Assembly: GCA_963513565.1 (NCBI GenBank)
Contig: CAUPRE010000017.1
Location: forward strand, 7,445-71,444
Length of the DNA stretch: 64,000 nucleotides
Direction of reading: 5' to 3'
From: an uncultured Flavobacterium sp.
GTDB taxonomy: Bacteria; Bacteroidota; Bacteroidia; Flavobacteriales; Flavobacteriaceae
Shown here: positions 1-63,456 of the stretch, one piece after another
Position numbering within the stretch: position 1 is the stretch's first letter
Layout: the number at the start of each line of letters is the position of its first letter
Notes under the pieces: generated by a model
What the model was told of the DNA's origin: nothing
Databases searched by the model: none
The model's input: only the letters and a program-made list of their open reading frames with translations
Made by a program: the position numbers and the translations under genes

Positions 1-41
1 CACAAAAAAAACGAATAGTAAACCTAATCTTTTCATAGCAT

Positions 42-269
42 CTATTTATTAGAATTATAAAACCTAAGAAAACGAATAATAGCGTAAACAATTAGCAAGA
101 CACCTAAGGCAATTCTATACTTAAACTCCATTGCCAAAGGAAAATCTTTCCAAAAGACAACTGCTAAGCCTAAAACTAAATAGACGCAAAAAAACAACAT
201 CCCTATAACGAGAAGAAATCGCTCTTTAGGCGATTTCTTCTTCATATTATCAACTAAATTTGTAATCAT
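42..269 (-). CDS. small hypothetical membrane protein (75 aa)
   Basis: ORF track. Two hydrophobic helices (LLVIGMLFFCVYLVLGLAVVF, IALGVLLIVYAII). Its ATG overlaps the TAA of the upstream tonB-like ORF by 1 nt (TAATG). Confidence 0.45.
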   Translation of the reverse strand: MITNLVDNMKKKSPKERFLLVIGMLFFCVYLVLGLAVVFWKDFPLAMEFKYRIALGVLLIVYAIIRFLRFYNSNK

Positions 270-1066
270 TATTCGGCTGATTGAATAGTAATAGGAAGAG
301 AATATAACACCCTCACTTTTTTACCATTTTGTTCACCAGGAACCCATTTTGGGCATTTATTTAAAACTCTAATAGCTTCTTTTCCTGTTCCGTATCCAAT
401 ATCTCTTAATACTTTGATATCTGTTAGAGAACCATCTTTTTCTACAACGAAAGTCACATAAACTTTACCTTTTAAACCTTCTTCTTCAGGTGCTTGGTAA
501 TTATTACCTACAAATTTGTAGAATTTTTCCATACCCCCTGGGAATTCAGGTTTTACTTCAATACCAGCAGTGTTGTAAACCGTATTGTCCTCTTCAACAA
601 CAGCAGCAGTACCTGTACCAACTGGTTCATCAACAGTTAAAATTGCATCTGGATCACCTTTTATAGTTTCAGCACCAATCTTTTTGTCTTTGATTTCTTT
701 TACCTCAACAATTTCCTCAACCACATCCTCTGCTTTAGCCACAACTGGCTTCACAAATTTCACTTGGTCCACTTTTGGTGGTGGTGGTGGTGGCGGAATG
801 TCTGGTTTAACTTCATCTTTCTTCTTAGGAGGTAATTTTACCGCAGTAATTTTTACATCAAGATTTTCATCTTCATCAGAACCGCTAGGCAACAAACTTG
901 CAATAAGTGGAGCACTAACCGCTAAACTGAAGACGATTGCACCCATTATAAGTGCTCTCATAGATGTCTTACGATTCGATTTTCTCAATTCATAAGCACC
1001 ATACAGTTTATTACGTCCTTCAAAAACGATATCAAGCCATTGATTTTTTAATATATCTAATTTCAT
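269..1066 (-). CDS. tonB: energy transducer TonB
   Basis: N-terminal anchor helix (ALIMGAIVFSLAVSAPLIA), Pro-rich spacer (PDIPPPPPPPK) and C-terminal TonB-type domain (PEFPGG...VYVTFVVEKDGSLTDIKVLR). Lies downstream of exbB-exbD-exbD on the same strand. Confidence 0.8.
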   Translation of the reverse strand: MKLDILKNQWLDIVFEGRNKLYGAYELRKSNRKTSMRALIMGAIVFSLAVSAPLIASLLPSGSDEDENLDVKITAVKLPPKKKDEVKPDIPPPPPPPKVDQVKFVKPVVAKAEDVVEEIVEVKEIKDKKIGAETIKGDPDAILTVDEPVGTGTAAVVEEDNTVYNTAGIEVKPEFPGGMEKFYKFVGNNYQAPEEEGLKGKVYVTFVVEKDGSLTDIKVLRDIGYGTGKEAIRVLNKCPKWVPGEQNGKKVRVLYSLPITIQSAE

Positions 1067-15904: not shown

Positions 15905-17152
15905 TTAGATTTCGGCAGATTGAAACCCTAAACTTTTTAAATCTGTCCAAAAATCAGGGTATGACTTTGAAACCACTTCGGCATTGTTGATTATGATTGG
16001 AACACGCAAAGCTAATGGAGCAAAAGCCATTGCCATACGATGATCGTTATACGTATCTATCGCGATATTTGGCAAAATAGTACTAGTAGGTTCCAAAGTC
16101 AAACTATCGTTAGTAACAGTAATGGCTGCGCCTAATTTTGTTAGTTCAATTCGAAGGGCTTCCAAGCGATCCGTTTCTTTAATTTTTAGGGTATGTAATC
16201 CCGTTAAATGACAGCCTATACCAAGTCCCAAACAAGTAACAACAATGGTTTGCGCAATATCTGGTGTATTATTCAAATCGAAAGTAACCGATTGATAATC
16301 GAAATTAGGCTGCTTTACCAAGGTCAGTTTATTTTCTTCAAAACGAGCCTCGACTCCCATTTTGGCGTAGATTTCAACCAAAGCCGAATCGCCTTGCAAA
16401 CTTGATTCTTTATAGCTACTCAATACGATAACGGCTTCGTTCGACAAAGCTGCCAAACTGAAAAAGTAAGACGCAGAACTCCAATCGGATTCGACAAGCC
16501 CCCTAGCCCCCGAAGGAGGAACTTCAGCTAATGGCTTAACCACTATTGTATTTCCTTCAAAACTTGTTACTGCGCCAATTTGATTGAGCAAGGCCAATGT
16601 CATTTTGATGTATGGAACAGAAGTAATTTCGCCAACCAAGGTCAATTCGATTCCATTTTCTAATTTTGGAGCCACTAACAAAAGTGCCGAAATGTATTGA
16701 CTACTTACATTGGCAGGAATACTCACTTTGGATTGGGTTATTTTTTGACCTTTGATTCGGATAGGTGGGAATCCCGGTTCTTTTTCGTAATAAATTTTAG
16801 CACCTAATTGTTGCAATGCTTCAACTAATACTTTTATGGGACGCTCAGTCATACGCTGAGAGCCTGTCAAAACTACTTCTTTTCCTTCGCTTACTGCAAA
16901 AAAAGCCGTTAAGAAACGCATGGCAGTTCCTGCATGATGAATATCTATAAGTTGAGAATCAGCACCCGAAAACTGAGTATTCTGCAAGGCTTTGGTCATC
17001 ACTTCCGAATCATCAGAATTGGAAGTATTGTCCAAAACAAGATTGGGATATAATGCCTGCAACAATAACAATCTGTTGGTTTCGCTTTTGGAACCAGTGA
17101 TTGAGATAGTAGCATTGAGATTTGAAATTGCAGAATGTAGTTGTAAATTCAT
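15905..17152 (-). CDS. aroA: 3-phosphoshikimate 1-carboxyvinyltransferase (EPSP synthase)
   Basis: GSKSETNRLLLL, AGTAMRFL and SDWSSASYF motifs. The track start at 17227 is a GTG, so I prefer the ATG at 17152 (MNLQLHS...). Carries an in-frame repeat insertion at 16498..16519. Confidence 0.9.
   Translation of the reverse strand: MNLQLHSAISNLNATISITGSKSETNRLLLLQALYPNLVLDNTSNSDDSEVMTKALQNTQFSGADSQLIDIHHAGTAMRFLTAFFAVSEGKEVVLTGSQRMTERPIKVLVEALQQLGAKIYYEKEPGFPPIRIKGQKITQSKVSIPANVSSQYISALLLVAPKLENGIELTLVGEITSVPYIKMTLALLNQIGAVTSFEGNTIVVKPLAEVPPSGARGLVESDWSSASYFFSLAALSNEAVIVLSSYKESSLQGDSALVEIYAKMGVEARFEENKLTLVKQPNFDYQSVTFDLNNTPDIAQTIVVTCLGLGIGCHLTGLHTLKIKETDRLEALRIELTKLGAAITVTNDSLTLEPTSTILPNIAIDTYNDHRMAMAFAPLALRVPIIINNAEVVSKSYPDFWTDLKSLGFQSAEI
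16498..16519. repeat. family A GC hairpin element (CCTCCTTCGGGGGCTAGGGGGC) inside the aroA CDS
   Basis: The same about 24-nt element occurs at 30830, 41860, 56419 and 59514. Here it is translated in frame as PPSGARGL just before the conserved ESDWSSASYF motif. Confidence 0.85.
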
Positions 17153-17258
17153 GGCTGTATAAAAGATGTTGTGAGCTGTGCTTTGTATTACCGCTCCAAT
17201 AATTTTGGGGTGCAATTTACAATTCACAACTCACAATTCACAATTTAGCCTTGACTAA

Positions 17259-29462: not shown

Positions 29463-29482
29463 TATTATTTTTATTATTAGCT

Positions 29483-29551
29483 AATCCTGCTATCCGCTAT
29501 ATCTATTGTGGCGAACCCCGCTACAATAGGATGCCGCTACTATCAGGGCTA
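29483..29551. repeat. family D element (reverse orientation)
   Basis: The reverse complement reads tagccctgatagtagcggcatcc-[tattgtagcggggttcgccacaata]-gatatagcggatagcagga. Same flank-hairpin-flank layout as 42039, 50796 and 55524. Confidence 0.75.
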
Positions 29552-29562
29552 GGTATTATCTG

Positions 29563-30829: not shown

Positions 30830-30854
30830 CCCCGCCTAGGCGGGTTAGGGGGCT
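30830..30854. repeat. family A variant (CCCCGCCTAGGCGGGTTAGGGGGCT) abutting the pheA stop
   Basis: The pheA stop TAG (30853..30855) overlaps the element by 2 nt at its edge. The element lies in the pheA-aminotransferase spacer. Confidence 0.7.
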
Positions 30855-31680
30855 AAGGTTTTGTATTTTTATATTCACCCAAAACTTTAAAATAATCCGC
30901 CATAATCGAAACTAATGCTTTCGCCTTGGCGTAATCTTCATACTTTTCAAAAGTCACATCTACAAAAAAAGAATATTTCCAAGGTGTTTCTATTTTTGGC
31001 AAGGATTGTATTTTGGTTAAATTCAGTTTACAATCGCTCATCACATTCAAAACAGCGGCTAAACTTCCGCGTTTATGGTCCAATTCAAACTTGATGGAGG
31101 CTCTATTGATTTCGTCTTCGGAAACAAAAGAATTCTCTTTTTTGAGGATTACAAATCGAGTCATATTGTTCTCGATGGTTTGAATCGAAGGCGCGATAAT
31201 CTCTAAATTATACATATCAGCAGCCGTTTCACTGGCGATTGCTGCAATTCCTTTGATTTGATTTTCGTGGATTCTGCGAGCGGTTTCTGCCGTATCTTTA
31301 TCTTCAACCAATTTAATGTTAGGGTATTTTTTCAAGAAGTCCATACATTGTAATAATGCCATCGGATGCGAATGTACTTCTTGTATATCCTCGATTTTTT
31401 GTCCAGGCAAAGCCATTAAATTTTGAATAATATCCAAATAATGTTCCCCTATAATGTGCAAATTATTCTTGTCGATTAGTGCATAATTTGGAATAATCGG
31501 TCCCGCAATGGAGTTCTCAATAGCCATTACCGCTTGGTCACTATCTCCCTTCAACAAGCTATCTACTAATTCTTCAAAAGACAAGCATTCATCTACTGCC
31601 ACATTTTGGTAGAAATAATCTTTAGCTACCTGATGGTGAAACGACCCCTTTATCCCCTGAATTGCAATTTTTGCTCTCAT
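30853..31680 (-). CDS. pheA: prephenate dehydratase
   Basis: AIENSIAGPI and TRFVIL motifs plus a C-terminal ACT domain. First gene of the aromatic operon. Confidence 0.9.
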   Translation of the reverse strand: MRAKIAIQGIKGSFHHQVAKDYFYQNVAVDECLSFEELVDSLLKGDSDQAVMAIENSIAGPIIPNYALIDKNNLHIIGEHYLDIIQNLMALPGQKIEDIQEVHSHPMALLQCMDFLKKYPNIKLVEDKDTAETARRIHENQIKGIAAIASETAADMYNLEIIAPSIQTIENNMTRFVILKKENSFVSEDEINRASIKFELDHKRGSLAAVLNVMSDCKLNLTKIQSLPKIETPWKYSFFVDVTFEKYEDYAKAKALVSIMADYFKVLGEYKNTKP

Positions 31681-40432: not shown

Positions 40433-40522
40433 GGGCGTCTCCCAAGGGCCGGGCTATCCGTTCCCGCTTTTTTTCTTGATAAAAAAATCAAGAAAAAAGA
40501 GCTCCACTACTATCCCTCACGC
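40433..40522. repeat. family C variant (GGGCGTCT...GGGCTATCC...[ttcttgat..atcaagaa hairpin]...CTATCCCTCACGC)
   Basis: Shares both termini and the GGGCTATCC word with 5092..5205 and 62021..62135, but has a different internal hairpin. Confidence 0.65.
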
Positions 40523-40610
40523 GGGCATTGTGCAATACAACACCATTTTTGTTTCAATGAAACGGTTCCGTTTTTATAATTCACAACGGAATGAATTTTC
40601 CTCTTACATC

Positions 40611-40864: not shown

Positions 40865-41914
40865 TTACATCACCGCAGTCGAAACCCTCGGCTTATACTC
40901 CTTAGCGATATCCGCAATTAATTTGATGTGTTCTGGGGTGGTGCCGCAGCAGCCTCCTATGATGTTGATTAAATTATCTTCTAAATAAGAACGAATTTGC
41001 GCTTGCATTTCCTCAGGCGTTTCGTCGTATTCTCCAAAGGCATTAGGCAATCCCGCATTAGGATGCGCCGAAATATTGAAAGAGGTATTATGCGACAAAT
41101 TTTGCAAATACGGCTTGAGCAAATCGGCGCCCAAAGCGCAATTGAATCCTACACTCAACAACGGAATGTGCGAAACCGAAATCAAGAAAGCCTCAACGGT
41201 TTGTCCAGAAAGTGTTCTTCCTGAAGCATCGGTGATGGTTCCAGAAACCATAATCGGTACATCGATGTTGCGTTCTTCTTTGACTTCTTCGATGGCAAAA
41301 AGTGCGGCTTTGGCATTCAAGGTGTCGAAAATAGTTTCTACCAAAAGAATGTCAGAACCTCCATCCAACAAGGCTTCGACTTGTTGTTTGTAAGCGATAC
41401 GTAAATCATCAAAAGTTACCGCTCGGTATCCTGGGTCATTCACATCGGGTGACATACTTGCGGTTCTGTTTGTGGGTCCAATGGAACCTGCTACAAAACG
41501 TGGTTGGTCTGGATTTTTGGCGGTGAATGCATCGGCTACTTCACGGGCTAATTTAGCGGATTCGTAGTTGAGTTCGTATACCAAATCCTCCAAATGATAG
41601 TCGGCCATTCCGATGGTGGTTCCTGAAAAGGTATTGGTTTCTACAATATCGGCTCCTGCCTCAAAATAGGCGGCGTGCACGGCTTTGATGGCCTGTGGTT
41701 GCGTGAGGGACAATAAATCATTGTTCCCTTTTAACGGATGTGGGAAATCTTTGAATCGTTCGCCACGAAAATCTTCTTCGGAGAAATTGTAGCGTTGCAA
41801 CATCGTTCCCATCGCTCCGTCGAGCACGAGAATTCTTTTTTTTATAGCTTCCCAAATAAGCCCCCTAGCCCCCGAAGGGGGAACTCCTATCGTATCTTTT
41901 AAATCTTTTGACAT
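40865..41914 (-). CDS. homocysteine S-methyltransferase domain protein (N-terminal module of split MetH)
   Basis: [15 protein letters not shown] and [11 protein letters not shown] zinc-ligand motifs. I prefer the ATG at 41914 because the track start at 41947 is a TTG. The N-terminus contains a translated family A repeat (VPPSGARGL). Confidence 0.88.
41860..41882. repeat. family A GC hairpin element inside the 5' end of the Hcy methyltransferase CDS
   Basis: gccccctagcccccgaaggggga. In frame it encodes PPSGARGL between the ATG (41914) and the conserved KKRILVLDG core. Confidence 0.85.
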
Positions 41915-42038
41915 ACTTTTTCTTGTCGCTAAGGCGCTAGAGCGCAAAGCTTTTTTTAATTTATATTTTCTGACATTCCTCTAGTTTGAGGAAATACATT
42001 GCTTTTTTTGTTTCTAAATAAGCCTATTGCTGGCTATT

Positions 42039-42109
42039 TAGCCCCGATAGCAGTGTAAATCCTTGTGTGCCGGGGTTCGGCATACAAGATTGTAACGGAT
42101 AGCGGGAAC
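42039..42109. repeat. family D element between the SAM riboswitch and its regulated ORF
   Basis: tagccccgatagcagtgtaaatcc-[ttgtgtgccggggttcggcatacaa]-gattgtaacggatagcgggaac. Confidence 0.8.
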
Positions 42110-42175
42110 GTTGATGCCAAAAAAGCGGCAATGATGCGCTCATTCAATTATTTAAAAATGTATCGGGAAAGGGGT

Positions 42176-42200: not shown

Positions 42201-42203
42201 GTT

Positions 42204-42307
42204 GTTATCTATCCGCGCTATGCTTGGTAGAATGTAGCACCTTCTTTAAAAAAGTAAAGGGTTGCTAAGGTTTCATCGGGTCTTTTCCCTCCGCCTTTCG
42301 TGATAAC
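42204..42307 (-). promoter_or_regulatory. SAM-I (S-box) riboswitch aptamer upstream of the Hcy-MT/metH/metF genes
   Basis: The minus strand reads GUUAUC-acgaaAGGCGGAGGGAaaAGACCCGAUGAAaCCuuAGCAACCc...gaAGGUGCUAcAUUCua...GAUAAC, matching the SAM-I conserved core and P1 helix. Confidence 0.8.
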
Positions 42308-42383
42308 TTTCAATAAAAATAGGAACGGTGCAAAGTAACGACATAACGCTAACAATTGCAAGTGTTTTTTTAGAAGTTTAAAA

Positions 42384-50527: not shown

Positions 50528-50795
50528 TTCATTTTAAAATCTATTACCCTATCGGTTTTGTAGATTACTTCGCAAAAGTACTACTATTTTCTAAATCACA
50601 AAATTTATTTTAAAAAATTAGCGTTGTTTTTACATCAAAAAATCAAGTCCATTAAGAAATTAAAAGATTTATTGTTAAAGTCATAGGCGTAACATCTATT
50701 CTTTTTATGAATAGCAATGAAGAATGAAGTCTTCTCTCATTTTCATAAAGTAACATAAAGAAGGAAAAGTGAATTAAAAAAGCAGACGTCTTTAA

Positions 50796-50873
50796 TAGCC
50801 CCGGGAGTAGCGGCATCCTTTTTTGTCTCGTTTTTTTTTTACGAGACAAAAAAGATATAGCGAATCACGGGAG
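50796..50873. repeat. family D element in the cysH/tauE divergent spacer
   Basis: tagccccgggagtagcggcatcc-[ttttttgtctcg-t10-acgagacaaaaaa]-gatatagcgaatcacgggag. Confidence 0.75.
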
Positions 50874-50954
50874 GAGACGTGATGAAAAAAAAATAATTTG
50901 TGCTTCAATAAAATTTAATTCTACTTAATCGATAGGATTATTATAAATTTATTT

Positions 50955-55395: not shown

Positions 55396-55523
55396 TTACT
55401 TTTAATGTCAAAAACCAAATTTACACTTTTAACAAATCAAAACTCAATTATTCTATCGTCTGAATTCGATAAATAGTATTTCTACCATTTTGGATGATAA
55501 CAAAAATGCAAAATCTTTCCTTT

Positions 55524-55601
55524 TAGCCCCGATGGAAGGGAAAATCCTTTTTTGAGTCGATCTTTTTTCGACTCAAAAAAGATTGGAATGACAGCGGGAA
55601 C
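55524..55601. repeat. family D element
   Basis: tagccccgatggaagggaaaatcc-[ttttttgagtcga-tctttt-ttcgactcaaaaaa]-gattggaatgacagcgggaac. Confidence 0.8.
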
Positions 55602-55718
55602 TTTCCCTCCAAAAAAGCCAAATCTTTCTGCTCCAAATTAATCGTTTTACTATAATATCCCTTTTATAACCACAAAACCCACAGCCGAAAGCGTGGGTTT
55701 AAAATTGTTATAAAACTA

Positions 55719-56318
55719 TTAAAGATCAAAAACGACTTTTGCCTTAAATTTTAAGTTTGGAAAAACGGCACTTTGGAGGAGGCTTTTTTCTGTAATCGGT
55801 TTTAATCCTACGAATCTATCGTTTTCGAGAACGTAGATCAAAATCATTTTTTCCATAGGATTAACTATCCAATACTCTTTAACTTTATTTTCTTGGTAGA
55901 GATCAAATTTCAAATCCATTTCTTTTGTGGAATTCCCTGGCGAAAGAATTTCGATGATCAAATCGGGAGCGCCAATACATCCTTTTTCATCTAATTTATT
56001 ATGATCACAAATAACACATAAATCAGGTTGAACCACAGAAACTATCTGACTATCATCACTACTGTTTTTAAAATCAACCAATCGAACATCAAATGGTGCT
56101 GCATACATTTTACAGGATGTTTTGCGGAAAATTTTATCTAACTGTCTTGCAATTATCCAAGAAATTTCTTGATGATTCCTGCTAGGAGCTGGACTCATTT
56201 TTAAGATTTTCCCCTTAATCAACTCTACCCTTTCCGAGAATTGCCATAGCAAATAATCAGCATAAGTATAACTTCCTTTAGGATCTAATTGATTGATGTT
56301 GTTAATAATAGTACTCAT
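55719..56318 (-). CDS. Uma2 family (DUF820) restriction-endonuclease-fold protein
   Basis: The pattern YTYADYL...ELIKGKI..MSPAPS..HQ...PDL..EILSP.N...D...K...Y...V.EYWIV is typical of Uma2. I prefer the ATG at 56318 because the track start is a TTG. Confidence 0.75.
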   Translation of the reverse strand: MSTIINNINQLDPKGSYTYADYLLWQFSERVELIKGKILKMSPAPSRNHQEISWIIARQLDKIFRKTSCKMYAAPFDVRLVDFKNSSDDSQIVSVVQPDLCVICDHNKLDEKGCIGAPDLIIEILSPGNSTKEMDLKFDLYQENKVKEYWIVNPMEKMILIYVLENDRFVGLKPITEKSLLQSAVFPNLKFKAKVVFDL

Positions 56319-56418
56319 TTTAACAGCTTTGGAATACAAATTTAATTAAAAAAACTTTCACAAAACATAACCCACAGCTGAAACCGTGGGCTATTACTAT
56401 AATTCAAAACTTTTGCAT

Positions 56419-56441
56419 TCCTCCTTCGGGGGTTAGGGGGT
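56419..56441. repeat. family A GC hairpin element overlapping the stop codon of the metB-like gene
   Basis: tcctccttcgggggttagggggt. The element supplies the final Thr-Pro codons and the TAA stop of the ORF. Confidence 0.8.
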
Positions 56442-57608
56442 CAACGCCTGATCCAAATCGGCAATCACATCTTCTACGGTTTCTAATCCTACAGAAACAC
56501 GTACCAAACCATCGGTGATGCTCACCGCCAAACGCTCTTCTATAGATAATTTACTATGCGTGGTAGAGGCTGGATGGGTTACAATAGTTCTAGTATCTCC
56601 CAAATTAGGCGATAACGAACATAATTTTATTTTATCCAAAAAGGCTCTTCCTGCTTCAAGTCCGCCTTTGATTTCGAAGGCCACGATGTTACCGCCCAAT
56701 TTCATTTGCTTTTTAGCAATTTCGTATTGCGGATGCGATTTCAAGAAAGGATATTTCACTTTATTGACTTGTGGATGATTTTCTAAAAACTCGGCTACTT
56801 TCAAAGCATTTTCACAATGTCTATCTACACGAACCGCCAAAGTTTCTAAACTTTTAGACAATACCCAAGCGTTAAATGGCGACAAAGAAGGTCCTGTCAA
56901 ACGAGAAAAAAGATAAATATCTTTAATCAAATCCGACCTTCCAACGGTAATTCCTCCTAAAACTCTGCCTTGTCCATCGATTAATTTGGTAGCCGAATGA
57001 ATCACCAAATCCGCTCCCCATTTAATGGGTTGCTGAATATAAGGCGTAGCAAAACAATTATCGATAATCAAAATCAAGTTGTGCTTTTTGGCAATGGCGC
57101 CCAATAATTCCAAATCAATGATATCGATGGCTGGATTCGTTGGAGATTCGGCATAAAGAATCTTGGTGTTGGGCTTAATAAAGCTTTCTATAGTTTCAGG
57201 TTGATTGATATCAAAATAGGTCGTTTGAATATTCCACTTTGGAAAATAATTCATAAACAAAGAATGCGAAGCACCAAAAACACTGCTTGACGAAACGATA
57301 TGATCGCCCGACTTCAACAAAGCTGCAAATGTAGAATAGATGGCTGCCATTCCTGATGCAAAAGCATAACCAGCTTCAGCTCCTTCCATTTTGCAAATTT
57401 TATCAATAAACTCAATGGTGTTTGGGTTGCTATAGCGGCTGTATACATTACGCTCTTTTTCTTCTGCAAATGAAGCTCTCATATCTTCGGCATCCTCAAA
57501 TACAAAACTTGACGTTAAGTATAAAGGCACCGAATGTTCTAAATATTGTGATCGTTCTATCTGACCGCGAATGGCTTGGGTTTCAAAACCAAAATCTTGT
57601 TCGTTCAT
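56433..57608 (-). CDS. Cys/Met-metabolism PLP-dependent enzyme (cystathionine gamma-synthase / O-acylhomoserine sulfhydrylase type)
   Basis: PLP-lysine motif HSATKLIDGQG and the YSRYSNPN N-terminal motif. 391 aa. Confidence 0.85.
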   Translation of the reverse strand: MNEQDFGFETQAIRGQIERSQYLEHSVPLYLTSSFVFEDAEDMRASFAEEKERNVYSRYSNPNTIEFIDKICKMEGAEAGYAFASGMAAIYSTFAALLKSGDHIVSSSSVFGASHSLFMNYFPKWNIQTTYFDINQPETIESFIKPNTKILYAESPTNPAIDIIDLELLGAIAKKHNLILIIDNCFATPYIQQPIKWGADLVIHSATKLIDGQGRVLGGITVGRSDLIKDIYLFSRLTGPSLSPFNAWVLSKSLETLAVRVDRHCENALKVAEFLENHPQVNKVKYPFLKSHPQYEIAKKQMKLGGNIVAFEIKGGLEAGRAFLDKIKLCSLSPNLGDTRTIVTHPASTTHSKLSIEERLAVSITDGLVRVSVGLETVEDVIADLDQALTP

Positions 57609-58225: not shown

Positions 58226-59313
58226 TTAAACATCAAGCCTTTTTAATTCTTGCTCAATTTCTTCAATGGTAGGCAAGCTACTTTTTAGGTTATCTGGCAA
58301 ATTTTCCGTTAGTTTCAATTCGCTTATCCCTATAGGTTTGTTTATGTCTCGTAAAGCAAATTCAGCTTCTAAATTACTTTTATCTTTACAAAGCAAAATA
58401 CCAATAGTTGGATTGTCGTCATTTTGCTTGACCAAACTATCCACTGCTGACAAATAAAAATTTAATTTCCCTGCAAATTCTGGTATAATTTGGTGTTTTT
58501 TAATTCAACCACCACATAACATTTAAGCCGAGTATGATAAAAGAGCAAATCGATATAATAATCATTATCGGCAATAACCAAATGATATTGTTGTCCAACA
58601 AATGCAAATCCTTTACCCAATTCTAGCAAAAACTTAGTGATATGTTGTACCAATTGGTTTTCGATATCTCGTTCTCTATATTTTGTATCTAAAGCAATAA
58701 AATCAAAAACATAAGGGTCTTTTAGCGTTTGAATGGCTAAATCTGAAAAAGGTTCAGGCAACGTATTTTTGAAATTAGTTATCGATTTGCCTTGTCTTTC
58801 ATATAAGTTTGATTTAATTTGAAGGTCTAAAATATCTCTACTCCAATTGTTTTCAATGGTTTGTTGGATGTAAAAAACCGCTTCATTTGTATCCTTTGAT
58901 TTCGTAAAAATAAGGATATTATGTCCCCAAGGCACTTGAATTAACAGTTGCTGCATTTTGTTTAATGACTGATTACTTGAGCTTTGCAACTCAGGGCTTG
59001 CTAGTTGCTCCATTAGTGCAACAGCTTGTTGCACTAAATCGGAAGCGTAAAATTTATAAAATTGCTTACAATTAAAAAGGTTTCTTCTTGAAAGTCCTTT
59101 CATTTCAGGAAACTCTTCCTTTAAGTCTTGTGCTACCTTTTCAATTAATTTGCTTCCCCAAACGCTTTCTTTTTCACTAATTGATTTTCCTAATTCCCAA
59201 TAAAACGCAATCAGCTCACTATTTACGGCAATTGCCGCTTTAATTTGTGAAGAACGAATTTTGCTTTTTAGCTCAACAAGCCAATTTTTATATTCAGTAG
59301 TTGTTATTTCCAT
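58226..59313 (-). pseudogene. yhcG: PDDEXK nuclease YhcG-like (DUF1016) gene with a single frameshift
   Basis: The N-terminal 283 aa (MEITTTEYKNW...) and C-terminal 75 aa are in different frames. Shifting the frame near 58488 restores ELKNTK-x-IPEFAGKLNFYLSAVDSLVKQNDDNPTIGILLC, the canonical YhcG core. Confidence 0.7.
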
Positions 59314-59318
59314 AATAA

Positions 59319-59373
59319 GCCCCTCCACAGCCCTCCTAAAAAGGGGAGGGAGCATAGACTGGAGGTAAGTCTT
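59319..59373. repeat. family B element + gactggaggtaagtctt hairpin, 6 nt upstream of the yhcG ATG
   Basis: Direct repeat of 58141..58195. Confidence 0.85.
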
Positions 59374-59513
59374 TATATAATTAATACTTTATATAATAAT
59401 GTTTATAATTCTACTATACTTGGACAAGCCAAACTCAGAAAAACAATGTTCCATCCTCTCCATCTAAAATCAAAAATTGTTACTCTTAATTCAAAAATCA
59501 TTTATCTTTTCAT

Positions 59514-59537
59514 TCCCCCTTCGGGGGCTAGGGGGCT
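59514..59537. repeat. family A GC hairpin element immediately 3' of the thrA stop
   Basis: tcccccttcgggggctagggggct. The thrA stop codon is at 59539..59541. Confidence 0.8.
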
Positions 59538-59538
59538 T

Positions 59539-61950
59539 TTACCCTTTATCCGACAACCTCAAAATATCGCCAAACACACCTCTCGCCGTTACTGCCGAAC
59601 CTGCTCCTGCTCCTTGAATTACAATAGGTCGGTCACCGTAGGATTCGGTGTAAATTTCGAAGAAAGAATCCGAACCTTTCAAACCTCCCAAAGCAGTATC
59701 CGAAGGTACAGAAACTAATTTTACTTCCAGATTTCCTTTATCGTTTTGCAAATCGCCAGACAATTCTCCAATATAGCGTAAAACGTGGTTGGGTTGCTGT
59801 TCTGCTTTTATTTTGGCATAAATAGGGTCGAACTCTTTTAGTTTATTCAAGAAAGTCGACACATCGCCTTCACGCAAATGCTCTGGAATTAAATTCTGAA
59901 TAGCAATCTCATCAAATTCGTTTTGCAAATCCAATTCTCTGGCCAAAATCAATAGTTTTCTACCTACGTCGTTACCACATAAATCTTCTCTAGGGTCGGG
60001 TTCAGTGTAACCGTTGTCGATTGCTTCTTTCAAAATTTCGCTAAACGGAACATCTTTGGCTGAGAAATTATTGAACAAATAACTTAACGTACCTGAAAAC
60101 ACTCCTTTGATTCTGGTGATGTTTTCACCCGACAAATGCAACAATTTGATGGTATCAATCAAAGGCAAACCTGCACCAACATTGGTTTCGTACAAATAAC
60201 TTTTTTGATTCTCATCCAAAACCTTTCTCAATTTTTTATAAAAACTATAGCTCAACGTATTGGCCACTTTATTAGAAGAAATCAAGTCGAAACTACTTTC
60301 AACTAATGGAATATAATTTTCAACAAAAGCTGCACTGGCGGTATTATCGATAGCAATTAAGTTCTCTAAATGATGCTCCTTCGCGTAGGCGATAATCTCA
60401 TCTATAGAATAAGAATGTCCGTTAGTTTGAATTTCATTTCTCCAATTTGGCGACACCCCATTTTTGTTCAACAAGACATTTTTTGAATTGGCTATCGCAA
60501 AAACATTCAATCGAATATCCTTGCGTTTTTCAATCGCATCTGCCGATTCTAAAATTTGGTTAATCAACGTTCCTCCTACCAATCCGTGTCCGAAAATCGC
60601 GATATTAATTTTCTTCGAAACCCCAAAAATTTCTCCGTGGATTACGTTCAACGCACGGTTCAATTCAGATTTATGCACCACCAAACTCACGTTTTTCCCT
60701 GTCACGGTGTTGTTGAACAAAATCGGAACAATCTTGTTTTTGATTAAAGCGGTGTAAGGTTTGTGAAACGTGCTCAAATCCTGCCCGATAATAGAGATTA
60801 CAGAAACTTCATCAGTAACCGAAATTTTATTTACGTCTTTGGAATAAAAGTCATTTTCGAATTCTTTTTCCAATTCAATCATCGCTTTACTCGCTTTGTC
60901 TGCGGCAACTACCAAACCAATACCACGTTCAGAAGACCCTTGAGAAATAATACTTACACTAATATCATTATCGCCCATCACTCTAAAAATACGCGCGTCA
61001 ACACCCGTTTTTCCAAGCAAACCTCGACCTTCTAAATTGACCAAAGCCACATTCTCCAAAACCGAAAGCGTTTTAATACCTTCCTTTCCAGCATTCGAAG
61101 TGATTAAAGTTCCTTTATTTTCGTGATTGAACGTATTTAAAATTCGTAGCGGAATATTTTTCTCCAAAAGCGGAATAATGGTTTTCGCGTGCAAAATAGT
61201 AGCGCCAAAATTGGCTAGCTCATTGGCTTCGTTAAACGATAGGAAGTCAATTTTTTTAGCATCTTCTACTAATTCTGGATTGGCCGTATAAATTCCATCC
61301 ACGTGCGTAAAATTCTGCAATTCGGATGCATTCAAATAATTCGCAAAAAGCGATGCCGTGTAGTTACTTCCGTTTCTACCCAAAGTCGTTGCCTCATTTT
61401 TGTTATTTGAACCAATAAAACCAGTAATTATGTTGACTTTATCGCTGTGTTGTTTAAAAAACTGCACCACATTTTTCTTAGAAATTTGCTCAATAGGTTG
61501 CGCATCACCAAATTTTCCATCGGTTTTTATCAATGCTCTAGCGTCAGCAAAATTGGCATTGACTCCTTTTTGCTTCAAAATAGCCGTAATCAATTTGGCC
61601 GACAGTAATTCGCCTTGCGATAAGACTTGGTCTTTGATTTTTTCGCTATAATCGCCAATCAAACTTACCCCTTCGAACAATTTTTCAAGCACGGTAAATT
61701 CCTCCGACAAATCCACCGTTGGGTAATCCGCTTGTTGATAGGCTTTAAATTTCTCGAACAAAGGTTTGTAGTTTTCATTTTTAGACGCAATCGCTAACAA
61801 ATCTTCCAACTCATCCGTTGCATTTCCTCTTGCCGAAACAACCACAGCAAATTCTTCTCCCTTCAACACTTTGTCTGAAAGTATCGCCAAAACTTTATTC
61901 AATCCATCGCCATTCGCTAATGATTTTCCTCCGAATTTTAATATTTTCAT
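59539..61950 (-). CDS. thrA: bifunctional aspartate kinase / homoserine dehydrogenase
   Basis: N-terminus MKILKFGGKSL (aspartokinase), two ACT regions, and a C-terminal homoserine dehydrogenase with the Rossmann motif IAIFGHGLVGG. 803 aa. Confidence 0.92.
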   Translation of the reverse strand: MKILKFGGKSLANGDGLNKVLAILSDKVLKGEEFAVVVSARGNATDELEDLLAIASKNENYKPLFEKFKAYQQADYPTVDLSEEFTVLEKLFEGVSLIGDYSEKIKDQVLSQGELLSAKLITAILKQKGVNANFADARALIKTDGKFGDAQPIEQISKKNVVQFFKQHSDKVNIITGFIGSNNKNEATTLGRNGSNYTASLFANYLNASELQNFTHVDGIYTANPELVEDAKKIDFLSFNEANELANFGATILHAKTIIPLLEKNIPLRILNTFNHENKGTLITSNAGKEGIKTLSVLENVALVNLEGRGLLGKTGVDARIFRVMGDNDISVSIISQGSSERGIGLVVAADKASKAMIELEKEFENDFYSKDVNKISVTDEVSVISIIGQDLSTFHKPYTALIKNKIVPILFNNTVTGKNVSLVVHKSELNRALNVIHGEIFGVSKKINIAIFGHGLVGGTLINQILESADAIEKRKDIRLNVFAIANSKNVLLNKNGVSPNWRNEIQTNGHSYSIDEIIAYAKEHHLENLIAIDNTASAAFVENYIPLVESSFDLISSNKVANTLSYSFYKKLRKVLDENQKSYLYETNVGAGLPLIDTIKLLHLSGENITRIKGVFSGTLSYLFNNFSAKDVPFSEILKEAIDNGYTEPDPREDLCGNDVGRKLLILARELDLQNEFDEIAIQNLIPEHLREGDVSTFLNKLKEFDPIYAKIKAEQQPNHVLRYIGELSGDLQNDKGNLEVKLVSVPSDTALGGLKGSDSFFEIYTESYGDRPIVIQGAGAGSAVTARGVFGDILRLSDKG

Positions 61951-63148: not shown

Positions 63149-63221
63149 ATCTTTGTTGTTGTTGATTTGTATTTGGAATATTAGAAAGAAAAACTAGTGG
63201 AGACTAGAGGTATTTTGTTGC

Positions 63222-63322
63222 GTTATCTTTTTCGCTAGGCGAATAGAATGTAGCACCTTCTTCGATTTCCGAAGGGTTGCTAAGGCTTCATTGGGTCTAA
63301 TCCCTCCGCCTTTCTTTATAAC
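63222..63322 (-). promoter_or_regulatory. SAM-I (S-box) riboswitch aptamer upstream of metX-thrA
   Basis: The minus strand reads GUUAU-aaagaaAGGCGGAGGGAuuAGACCCAAUGAAGCCuuAGCAACCcuucgg...gaAGGUGCUAcAUUCua...AGAUAAC. A weak hairpin (CUAGU-n4-ACUAG + U5) follows at about 63186..63208. Confidence 0.8.
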
Positions 63323-63456
63323 ATTTCAATACGTTTGTGAACTTAAAGCTGCAAAGTAACTATTTATTTTTTTAACACGCAAATTTTTAAAACAACAACC
63401 AAGTTACAAATCATTTGCAAACTTGGTTATTGTTAGCTATTAGAATCTAGTATTCT

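Follow-up and report, generated by a model that had tools for sequence, protein, structure and literature searches.

The question raised by this locus is how a GC-rich palindromic repeat came to lie in frame in the middle of an essential gene, and what it did to the encoded enzyme. The stretch analyzed, here called the window, comprises 64,000 nucleotides of an uncultured Flavobacterium sp. (contig CAUPRE010000017.1, positions 7,445 to 71,444 of the forward strand), and the gene is aroA, which encodes EPSP (5-enolpyruvylshikimate-3-phosphate) synthase. In the initial annotation of the window the repeat was described as an insertion adding the residues PPSGARGL. According to the reading preferred here, to which a probability of roughly 60% is assigned, the aroA copy is instead the lone end of a repeat family whose complete members enclose a DUF559 nuclease gene; it lies in frame in a loop of the enzyme, where it replaced an older loop, and the allele carrying it was brought in by recombination.

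The 22-mer CCTCCTTCGGGGGCTAGGGGGC is located at 16498-16519 on the minus strand within the open reading frame (ORF) 15905..17227(-). The product of this ORF is EPSP synthase, with orthologues of 77-96% identity, the Pfam domain PF00275 and matches to EPSP synthases in the PDB at an E value of 1e-65. The ATG at 17150-17152 agrees with the starts of annotated orthologues of 414 amino acids, and the open frame extends further to a GTG at 17227. The 22-mer is translated as VPPSGARGL immediately N-terminal of VESDWSSASYF, so that the ORF translation bears out the earlier statement that the reading frame is kept and that PPSGARGL precedes ESDWSSASYF. The element is also a genuine dispersed hairpin repeat within the essential gene, as had been proposed; 22-mer matches are expected 0 times by chance (100 dinucleotide shuffles). 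In the AlphaFold model m884af804ebb0 (mean predicted local distance difference test, pLDDT, of 80) PPSGARGL corresponds to residues 213-220, between a strand (203-206) and a helix (225-237), and the local pLDDT of about 60 would suit a hairpin or loop. The element-bearing aroA is spanned by Logan contigs of four independent runs, which differ from it at 0-2 positions, and other lineages carry the element in contigs from JGI, ENA and Logan. Because four independent runs carry the element-bearing gene, an assembly artefact, which the initial annotation had kept as a way to refute its claim, is excluded.

Comparison with orthologues was decisive for the nature of the change in the protein. Among the 120 closest proteins, AroA of the F. 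succinicans group (91-93% identical) is free of the element and reads KPL-TTNSKQQTVT-VESDW, with a loop of 10 residues, as against 11-12 residues in element-bearing AroA (11 in the window), i.e., a net gain of one to two residues. Loops of the TTNPKPQTLT type, equal in length to the F. succinicans loop, were found in further element-free lineages, and EPSP synthases of the E. coli and Vibrio types align across the loop with at most one gap. Since element-free orthologues have a loop of nearly equal length, the element replaces this loop and does not add eight residues. Loop intermediates between the two states were not found in 121 sequences, and the two states are discrete. An equivalent segment in repeat-free orthologues had been named as the observation that would reveal an ancestral loop with a coincidental similarity to the repeat. 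The loop is indeed ancestral, but the similarity is not coincidental, as the DNA is an exact member of the repeat family.

The same element occurs at the identical codon in five further aroA sequences (L120-L123 and L235; L numbers denote the compared loci). In a codon alignment of six aroA genes, (A/G)TT CCY CCT TCG GGG GYT AGG GGG CTT stands at one codon in four further lineages, where the unit differs by only three substitutions even though the flanking sequences are merely ~74-75% identical to the window. In a tree of aroA, built solely by neighbour joining and with the loop columns left out, the element-bearing state appears in at least six separate Flavobacterium clades, and the window and the element-bearing sequence P0001 (L235) are nested within the element-free F. 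succinicans group. A lineage-specific insertion or recent invasion, as first considered, does not agree with the presence of the element at the same codon in at least six aroA clades, with its sharing by a relative that is ~8% diverged in DNA, or with the phylum-wide range of the family described below. In one element-bearing lineage (L123, 2801-3336), a small ORF and a ParE-toxin ORF (PF05016) are located between aroA and queA.

The DNA around the aroA copy is mosaic. A patch consisting of the element and the adjoining sequence on its 5' side is ~35% diverged from the closest element-free aroA, compared with ~6% elsewhere in the gene. Between the window and this closest element-free sequence, P0002 (L234), 25 differences were counted in the 72 nt 5' of the element and 0 in the 60 nt 3' of it, and only 2 differences from the element-bearing P0001 fall within the patch. 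In contigs of co-occurring related strains the alignment breaks off at 16496/16497, where the element has its outer edge. The simplest reading of these comparisons is that the element-bearing loop allele would have been imported by homologous recombination as a mosaic segment of ~100 nt. One low-depth contig of run X5 joins 16492 to 16598 and thereby omits 16493-16597 (105 nt, 35 codons), exactly the element together with the patch; this contig may be chimeric or may reflect a true deletion allele in which the frame is kept.

The family to which the aroA copy belongs was delimited from an alignment of 135 copies, taken from 118 listed loci and the window. The consensus is A-R-TTCCCCCTTCGGGGGYTAGGGGGC-T-W with a length of ~28 nt, and the unit is ARTTCCCCCTTCGGGGGYTAGGGGGCTW. 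Composition is random past positions -7 and +3, so both edges are sharp and the repeat is a discrete unit, which is longer than the 22-24 nt given at first. The range was determined by a scan with the exact 18-mer core CCTTCGGGGGYTAGGGGG in one genome per species, and at least 118 loci were found in Flavobacteriales, Bacteroidales, Cytophagales, Sphingobacteriales, Chitinophagales and Saprospiraceae. As the exact core occurs across Bacteroidota, the repeat is not specific to Flavobacterium. A few loci in metagenome-assembled genomes (MAGs) assigned to other phyla (Limnohabitans, Fibrobacter, Saccharibacteria) are suspected to be binning errors. Viruses are not the main home of the repeat, because only 29 stretches were found among 2.9 million viral contigs. 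Inverted pairs of the repeat are present in L030, L078, L065, L080, L093 and L113.

Larger composites built around the unit were also observed. In Flavobacterium, a composite of CCTATTTACCCCTAATAGGAATT, the repeat and CTAA(CAT)ATG, ~60 nt in length, ends at the start codons of different genes (L001, L012, L023, L030, L058, L076, L078, L079, L104 and L110); the composite unites the repeat with a second small hairpin and may be a mobile 5' leader. Other large repeats that contain the 28-nt unit are lineage-specific and were seen as tandem arrays with a spacer of ~25 nt in a Psychroflexus MAG (L106) and as two copies of a ~70-nt composite (repeat and CAAATACATGATTGGATAAGAGA..CATAACTTTTTACCAATCATG) in Spirosoma (L035, 1-400).

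The connection to a nuclease was revealed by four of the 118 listed loci, in which the repeat bounds an in-frame DUF559 domain (PF04480, E 1e-35 to 1e-37). The hosts are the methionine synthase MetH in L038, L067 and L075 and leucyl-tRNA synthetase (LeuRS) in L040 (Cellulophaga baltica). The layout is host, SPLTPEGG-like peptide (unit reversed), DUF559, VPPSGVRGL (unit forward), host. The complete form is an inverted repeat pair around a DUF559 gene of ~120 codons, ~420-575 nt as a whole, which lies in frame in loops or linkers of numerous host proteins that are unrelated to one another. The aroA copy is oriented forward, as the right-hand terminal repeat is.

The four DUF559 inserts were used in a metagenome scan, and the best 80 of 573 relatives, a set biased towards LeuRS, were analyzed. 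About 75 of the 80 are joined in frame, on both sides, to long ORFs of their hosts. Hosts were LeuRS (49), MetH (at two sites), isoleucyl-tRNA synthetase (IleRS), RecG, a UvrD-like helicase, an ABC-F protein, PurL, a SpoIIE phosphatase, a GH31 protein, Type ISP restriction enzymes of restriction-modification systems and a prolidase-like protein. Free-standing DUF559 genes were found in L193, L196 and L197, that of L193 with its own start and stop codons and with repeat ends. The repeat was detected at up to 5 mismatches within 400 nt of DUF559 in 21 of the 80 loci (10 on both sides, 10 downstream only, 1 upstream only). In every such locus except the complex L138, all upstream copies are on the minus and all downstream copies on the plus strand. 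The 410 kb of sequence of the 80 loci contain 41 repeat hits, and 33 of these adjoin the nuclease in terminal-repeat orientation, with adjacency zones making up only 6% of the sequence. Moreover, left and right ends covary from element to element; in L160 and L193 one end is the exact reverse complement of the other, and each of these two elements has a linker of its own (AAA and TCG). Across the nuclease-flanking variants only the architecture C5-TTC-G5-N3-G5 is constant. The lengths of the in-frame units, 420, 420, 435, 447, 507, 537, 537 and 573 nt, are without exception divisible by three.

The only domain between the repeat ends is DUF559/REase_MTES_1575 of the PD-(D/E)XK fold (PF04480, E 1e-30 to 1e-37 for the inserts), and the nuclease motifs FRRQH, DF.CL, E.DG..H and RF.N are kept in all 80 copies. 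Neither a transposase (DDE, HUH, serine or tyrosine type) between the ends nor an intein or intron domain was present in the Pfam results for these loci. TTA or TTTA stands on both sides of the element in L161 and L193 and is absent in L135, L156, L179 and L185. CTAGG in the repeat was considered as a Vsr-type CTWGG target; free variation of the 3-nt linker in the copies that flank nucleases (TTA, CTA, AAC, GAC, CGG, TCG, TTG, AAA, CTG) led to the rejection of this idea.

Two sites in MetH present the different states of the element at one position each. At site 1, between AVAYLLPYI and a second anchor motif, L052, L111 and L179 are empty (49-62 residues between the anchors), L075 carries a nuclease-free inverted pair (74 residues), and L038, L067, L175, L178, L185 and L186 carry the full element (183-201 residues). 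Site 2, between ANTINDDDI and LTLRQQ, is empty in L067, L075 and L185 (46-50 residues); L111 has a solo right end there (53 residues), L052 a pair (67 residues) and L179 a full element (189 residues). The solo end of L111, like that of aroA, keeps the loop near its original length.

Copies within coding sequences (CDSs) are a general property of the family. ORFs were called mechanically, and a copy was counted as lying within an ORF if the frame was open for at least 150 nt on both sides. Accordingly, 32 of the 135 copies are within long ORFs, mostly kilobase-sized genes, and another 21 and 16 are at ORF ends and ORF starts, respectively. Of the six possible frames across the unit, four are open. 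About 12 in-ORF copies are read in the forward direction as (I/V)PPSG(A/V)RGL and about 18 in the reverse direction as SPLTPEGG(T/I/N); FPLRGLGG and KPPNPRRGN were each seen once. This bias towards two frames suggests selection for benign, turn-forming peptides. Nuclease-free in-frame pairs also occur in a protein resembling valyl-tRNA synthetase (ValRS), in Type ISP enzymes and elsewhere.

Within the window, four canonical copies of the 22-mer were found at up to 3 mismatches (16498-, 41860-, 56420+ and 59515+). Of the five copies counted initially these four are confirmed, and the fifth is probably a variant in which the hairpin stem is altered (Table 1); the density is therefore 5 per 64 kb, i.e., ~1 per 13-16 kb. 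The other copies had been placed between genes or at gene ends, which holds for 56420, 59515 and the variant but not for 41860, which also lies inside a CDS. The latter copy shares the frame of the aroA copy (VPPSGARGL), and the stretch of this metH-like ORF from the element to the conserved LDGAMGT motif is devoid of in-frame ATG, GTG and TTG codons. An O-acetylhomoserine sulfhydrylase-like gene takes its stop codon from the copy at 56420, and ORF 30853..31680(-) stops at a TAG formed by the CTA at the end of the variant; the copy at 59515 ends 2-3 nt past the stop codon of the thrA-like ORF.

Table 1. Coordinates of the aroA locus, the repeat copies and other features in the window, and of transposase-like ORFs in compared loci (L122, L099, L075).
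Feature	Position	Strand	Basis or remark
aroA (3-phosphoshikimate 1-carboxyvinyltransferase/EPSP synthase)	15905..17152	-	ORF, orthologues, PF00275, PDB matches
28-nt repeat unit AGTTCCTCCTTCGGGGGCTAGGGGGCTT in aroA	16496..16523	-	read as (E)VPPSGARGL; forward orientation
Mosaic patch (element and ~72-75 nt 5' in gene sense)	16498..16596	-	divergence comparison
Variant copy ATTCCCCGCCTAGGCGGGTTAGGGGGCTAA	30826..30856	+	hairpin stem CCCGCC/GGCGGG altered on both sides
Second in-CDS copy	41858..41885	-	N-terminal tail of metH-like (homocysteine S-methyltransferase domain) ORF 40865..41947(-)
Copy at sulfhydrylase gene end	56416..56443	+	TTA linker is the TAA stop on the minus strand, ORF 56433..57608(-)
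Copy directly past thrA-like stop	59511..59538	+	aspartokinase/homoserine dehydrogenase ORF 59539..61950(-)
Uma2-family ORF (PF05685)	55719..56339	-	starts ~80 nt downstream of the 56420 copy
DUF1016/YhcG PDDEXK nuclease ORF	58462..59355	-	starts ~160 nt downstream of the 59515 copy
Flavo-1 RNA motif (RF01705), five copies	29479-29554, 40443-40531, 42036-42113, 50793-50878, 55521-55605	-, -, +, +, +	52-73 bits
SAM riboswitch (RF00162)	42202-42309	-	73 bits; upstream of the metH-like ORF with the second in-CDS copy
SAM riboswitch (RF00162)	63220-63324	-	81 bits
RAYT-like Y1 ORF	L122 352-966	+	NH[FL]H ... YIH[QN]NP
RAYT-like Y1 ORF	L099 6584-7201	+	NH[FL]H ... YIH[QN]NP
RAYT-like Y1 ORF	L075 ~1-553	-	NH[FL]H ... 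YIH[QN]NP

Further features of the window touch on the repeat copies. The Uma2 and DUF1016/YhcG ORFs sit among methionine and threonine biosynthesis genes, and their proximity to the repeat could be due to chance or to an association of the repeat with other PD-(D/E)XK genes. In a search of the whole window against Rfam at gathering thresholds, no family was assigned to any of the five repeat copies; Flavo-1 and S-adenosylmethionine (SAM) riboswitch matches were located elsewhere. Flavo-1 constitutes a second dispersed repeat family of this genome, and its sequence is unrelated to the 28-nt repeat.

The reading of the aroA copy as the lone end of a DUF559 element starts from the fact that aroA contains one end only, in right-hand orientation, with PPSGARGL standing in place of the ancestral 10-residue loop. 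The enzyme would stay functional because the loop length is preserved, and the element would have no function for aroA. The loop allele would have arrived with ~75-100 nt of flanking aroA sequence from another Flavobacterium lineage by homologous recombination, which would explain why the same allele is found in at least six scattered clades. New copies in general may arise when the DUF559 nuclease breaks DNA at or near the repeats and the break is mended by copying repair. Where the target gene is essential, selection would spare only those outcomes that stay in frame, keep the length of the loop and are read in one of the two benign frames. The solo copy in aroA itself could have originated by decay of a full element or by direct solo formation at a break with loss of target sequence, and the statement at the level of the family is slightly favoured over either route.

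Several observations weigh against this interpretation. A full or paired element at the aroA loop was not found among the 120 closest homologues, and descent of the aroA copy from a full element is therefore argued by analogy only. A donor of the patch was not found among the six aroA DNA sequences, and the 3' boundary of the patch can be placed only to within ~30 nt, because ESDWSSASYF is conserved. No DUF559 gene is present in the 64-kb window, and 59 of the 80 DUF559 loci have no recognizable repeat at up to 5 mismatches. Solo copies are much more numerous than units with a nuclease (four of 118 listed loci), so most solos may be made directly and not by decay. A consistent target-site duplication was not found, and the hairpin folding energy of single copies is no better than that of shuffled sequences (z -0.9 to +1.0). 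That DUF559 would act on the repeats is suggested by the tight physical pairing, the covarying ends and the conserved motifs.

A broader statement can be made about the family, but it is offered tentatively and with the odds somewhat against it. The inverted-repeat/DUF559 units might be an unrecognized class of bacterial mobile element that moves solely by means of a Vsr-like nuclease and the element's hairpin ends and persists in frame in essential genes (LeuRS, MetH, IleRS, RecG, PurL and others). Each genome would then contain hundreds of 28-nt solo ends that such units left behind or mobilized in trans, and the copy in aroA would be a trace of this kind, spread from species to species by homing-like gene conversion.

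An alternative would make the 28-nt unit itself mobile, as a hairpin resembling the repetitive extragenic palindromic (REP) sequences and copied by a trans-acting enzyme. DUF559 would then home into or next to pairs of the unit, and aroA would have received a solo insertion directly with the loss of ~27 nt of target. The great excess of solos over DUF559-bearing units, the sharp edges of solo copies on both sides, the resemblance of inverted pairs to REPINs (REP doublets forming hairpins) and the stop codons supplied by solos at gene ends, as by GTAG REPs (PMC3733652), agree with this proposal. It is nevertheless considered unlikely. The covarying ends around DUF559 fit ends owned by the nuclease element, and the repeat is without the GT[AG]G or CGTC head of REPs. 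The three REP-associated tyrosine transposase (RAYT)-type Y1 genes encountered are flanked by other, species-specific hairpins. Furthermore, an in-frame insertion of 28 nt needs an extra change of 1 or 2 nt together with a compensating deletion.

A second alternative, in which the repeat is a host cis-signal under nucleotide selection (a terminator or RNA-stability hairpin, a protein-binding site or a DNA-uptake-type sequence) that spread by ordinary recombination and is tolerated by aroA, is judged clearly more improbable. Selection on nucleotides would account for the near-invariance of the unit in aroA lineages with ~75% identical flanks and for the exact 18-mer throughout the phylum. Copies are frequent at the 3' ends of genes, in some cases with a T run behind them, and inverted pairs occur between genes. 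The replacement of sequence and the recombination patch have parallels as well, since the uptake signal sequence (USS) of Haemophilus and the DNA uptake sequence (DUS) of Neisseria show replacement rather than insertion, and recombination patches. USS and DUS are taken up preferentially by competent cells and occur about once per kb, whereas the repeat occurs ~1 per 13-16 kb. Further, no Rfam family matches the repeat, its hairpin energy is unremarkable, copies are found in both orientations relative to genes and within ORFs where a terminator would be harmful, the exact 24-nt core cannot arise through point mutation, and a tight pairing with a nuclease gene would be unexpected for a host signal. 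Finally, a chance resemblance of the ancestral loop or an artefact of assembly deserves virtually no credence: repeat-free orthologues do have an equally long loop, but the sequence is an exact 22/28-nt family member with 0 expected by chance, and independent assemblies carry it.

For aroA alone, a lone DUF559-element end has a modest consequence, in that an essential enzyme tolerates the exchange of one of its loops. The link between the repeat and DUF559 is a new result; no prior description of the repeat, its peptides or this link was found in the literature, the coverage of which was incomplete, so that absence is no proof. A phylum-wide selfish element appears to remodel coding sequence, namely loops, N-termini and stop codons, and to nest a nuclease in tRNA synthetases, methionine synthase and repair helicases. 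This would explain odd "DUF559 fusions" and low-complexity PPSGxRGL and SPLTPEGG segments that are annotated as native in Bacteroidota proteomes. The insertions provide a natural map of insertion-tolerant sites in essential proteins, point to a nuclease that may recognize a defined hairpin sequence of 24-28 nt, and offer a testable case of repeat spread among orthologues of different species. If the units do form a mobile class, solo ends throughout the phylum Bacteroidota would reshape the loops of proteins as well as the starts and stop codons of genes.

Among known systems, the Rickettsia palindromic elements (RPEs) that colonize CDSs had been named as a likeness, and this is fair as an analogy, in-frame colonization of ORFs being shared. 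In both cases short palindromic repeats lie in frame in functional genes and are translated, and the short copies code for no enzyme. RPEs, however, are ~100-150 bp long, confined to Rickettsia and add residues, whereas the repeat described here has 28 nt, occurs in Bacteroidota, replaces the aroA loop and has nuclease-coding relatives; a sequence relation between RPEs and the 28-nt repeat was not seen.

REPs and REPINs (PMC3733652, PMC6006769) are likewise hairpins of 20-40 nt that occur singly and as inverted pairs, often just past genes, where some supply stop codons, and occasionally in ORFs. In contrast, the 135-copy consensus has no GT[AG]G or CGTC head, and about one quarter of the copies are in ORFs. 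Unlike species-specific REPs, the sequence of the 28-nt repeat is conserved phylum-wide and its partner gene encodes a PD-(D/E)XK nuclease and not an HUH Y1 enzyme. RAYTs were considered as the cognate enzyme and rejected, as the long hairpins on either side of the RAYT ORFs in L075, L099 and L122 are different ones, e.g., CCCTGTCAGGGTTCNAAACCCTGACAGGG and ACTCCGACAGAGTTCAAAACTCTGTCGGAGT. Their NH[FL]H ... YIH[QN]NP motifs are those of RAYT subclass 2.6 (PMC6006769). The gene in L122 is located two genes upstream of aroA. Flavo-1 RNA was also rejected as the RAYT-flanking repeat, since the sequences differ.

Miniature inverted-repeat transposable elements (MITEs) such as the Correia/NEMIS elements of Neisseria are similar in that nuclease-free pairs of ~60-75 nt share terminal repeats of ~24-28 nt with a longer coding element. 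They differ in that the longer partner here codes for no known transposase, clear target duplications are missing, the insertions are in frame in essential genes and single ends are the commonest form. Mobile GC-rich hairpins that enter coding regions in frame in AT-rich genomes are represented by the GC clusters of yeast mitochondria and the double-hairpin elements of Allomyces, which have been linked to gene conversion mediated by endonucleases; unlike the 28-nt repeat, these are organellar, have other sequences and are not known as ends of nuclease genes.

Finally, the DUF559 units resemble the Vsr-like homing endonuclease genes (HEGs; EDxHD, I-Bth0305I) in encoding a nuclease of the Vsr/DUF559 clade with conserved motifs and in residing inside essential genes without destroying them. 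This clade is shared with the I-Bth0305I homing endonuclease lineage (PMC3424549). Patchy presence at identical sites is a further likeness, and the one-sided mosaic patch by aroA looks co-converted. In contrast to HEGs, the units have no intron or intein as carrier, and the nuclease is translated as a nested domain. Because the same terminal repeats are found at many unrelated host sites, a transposition-like spread is implied and not homing to one cognate site.

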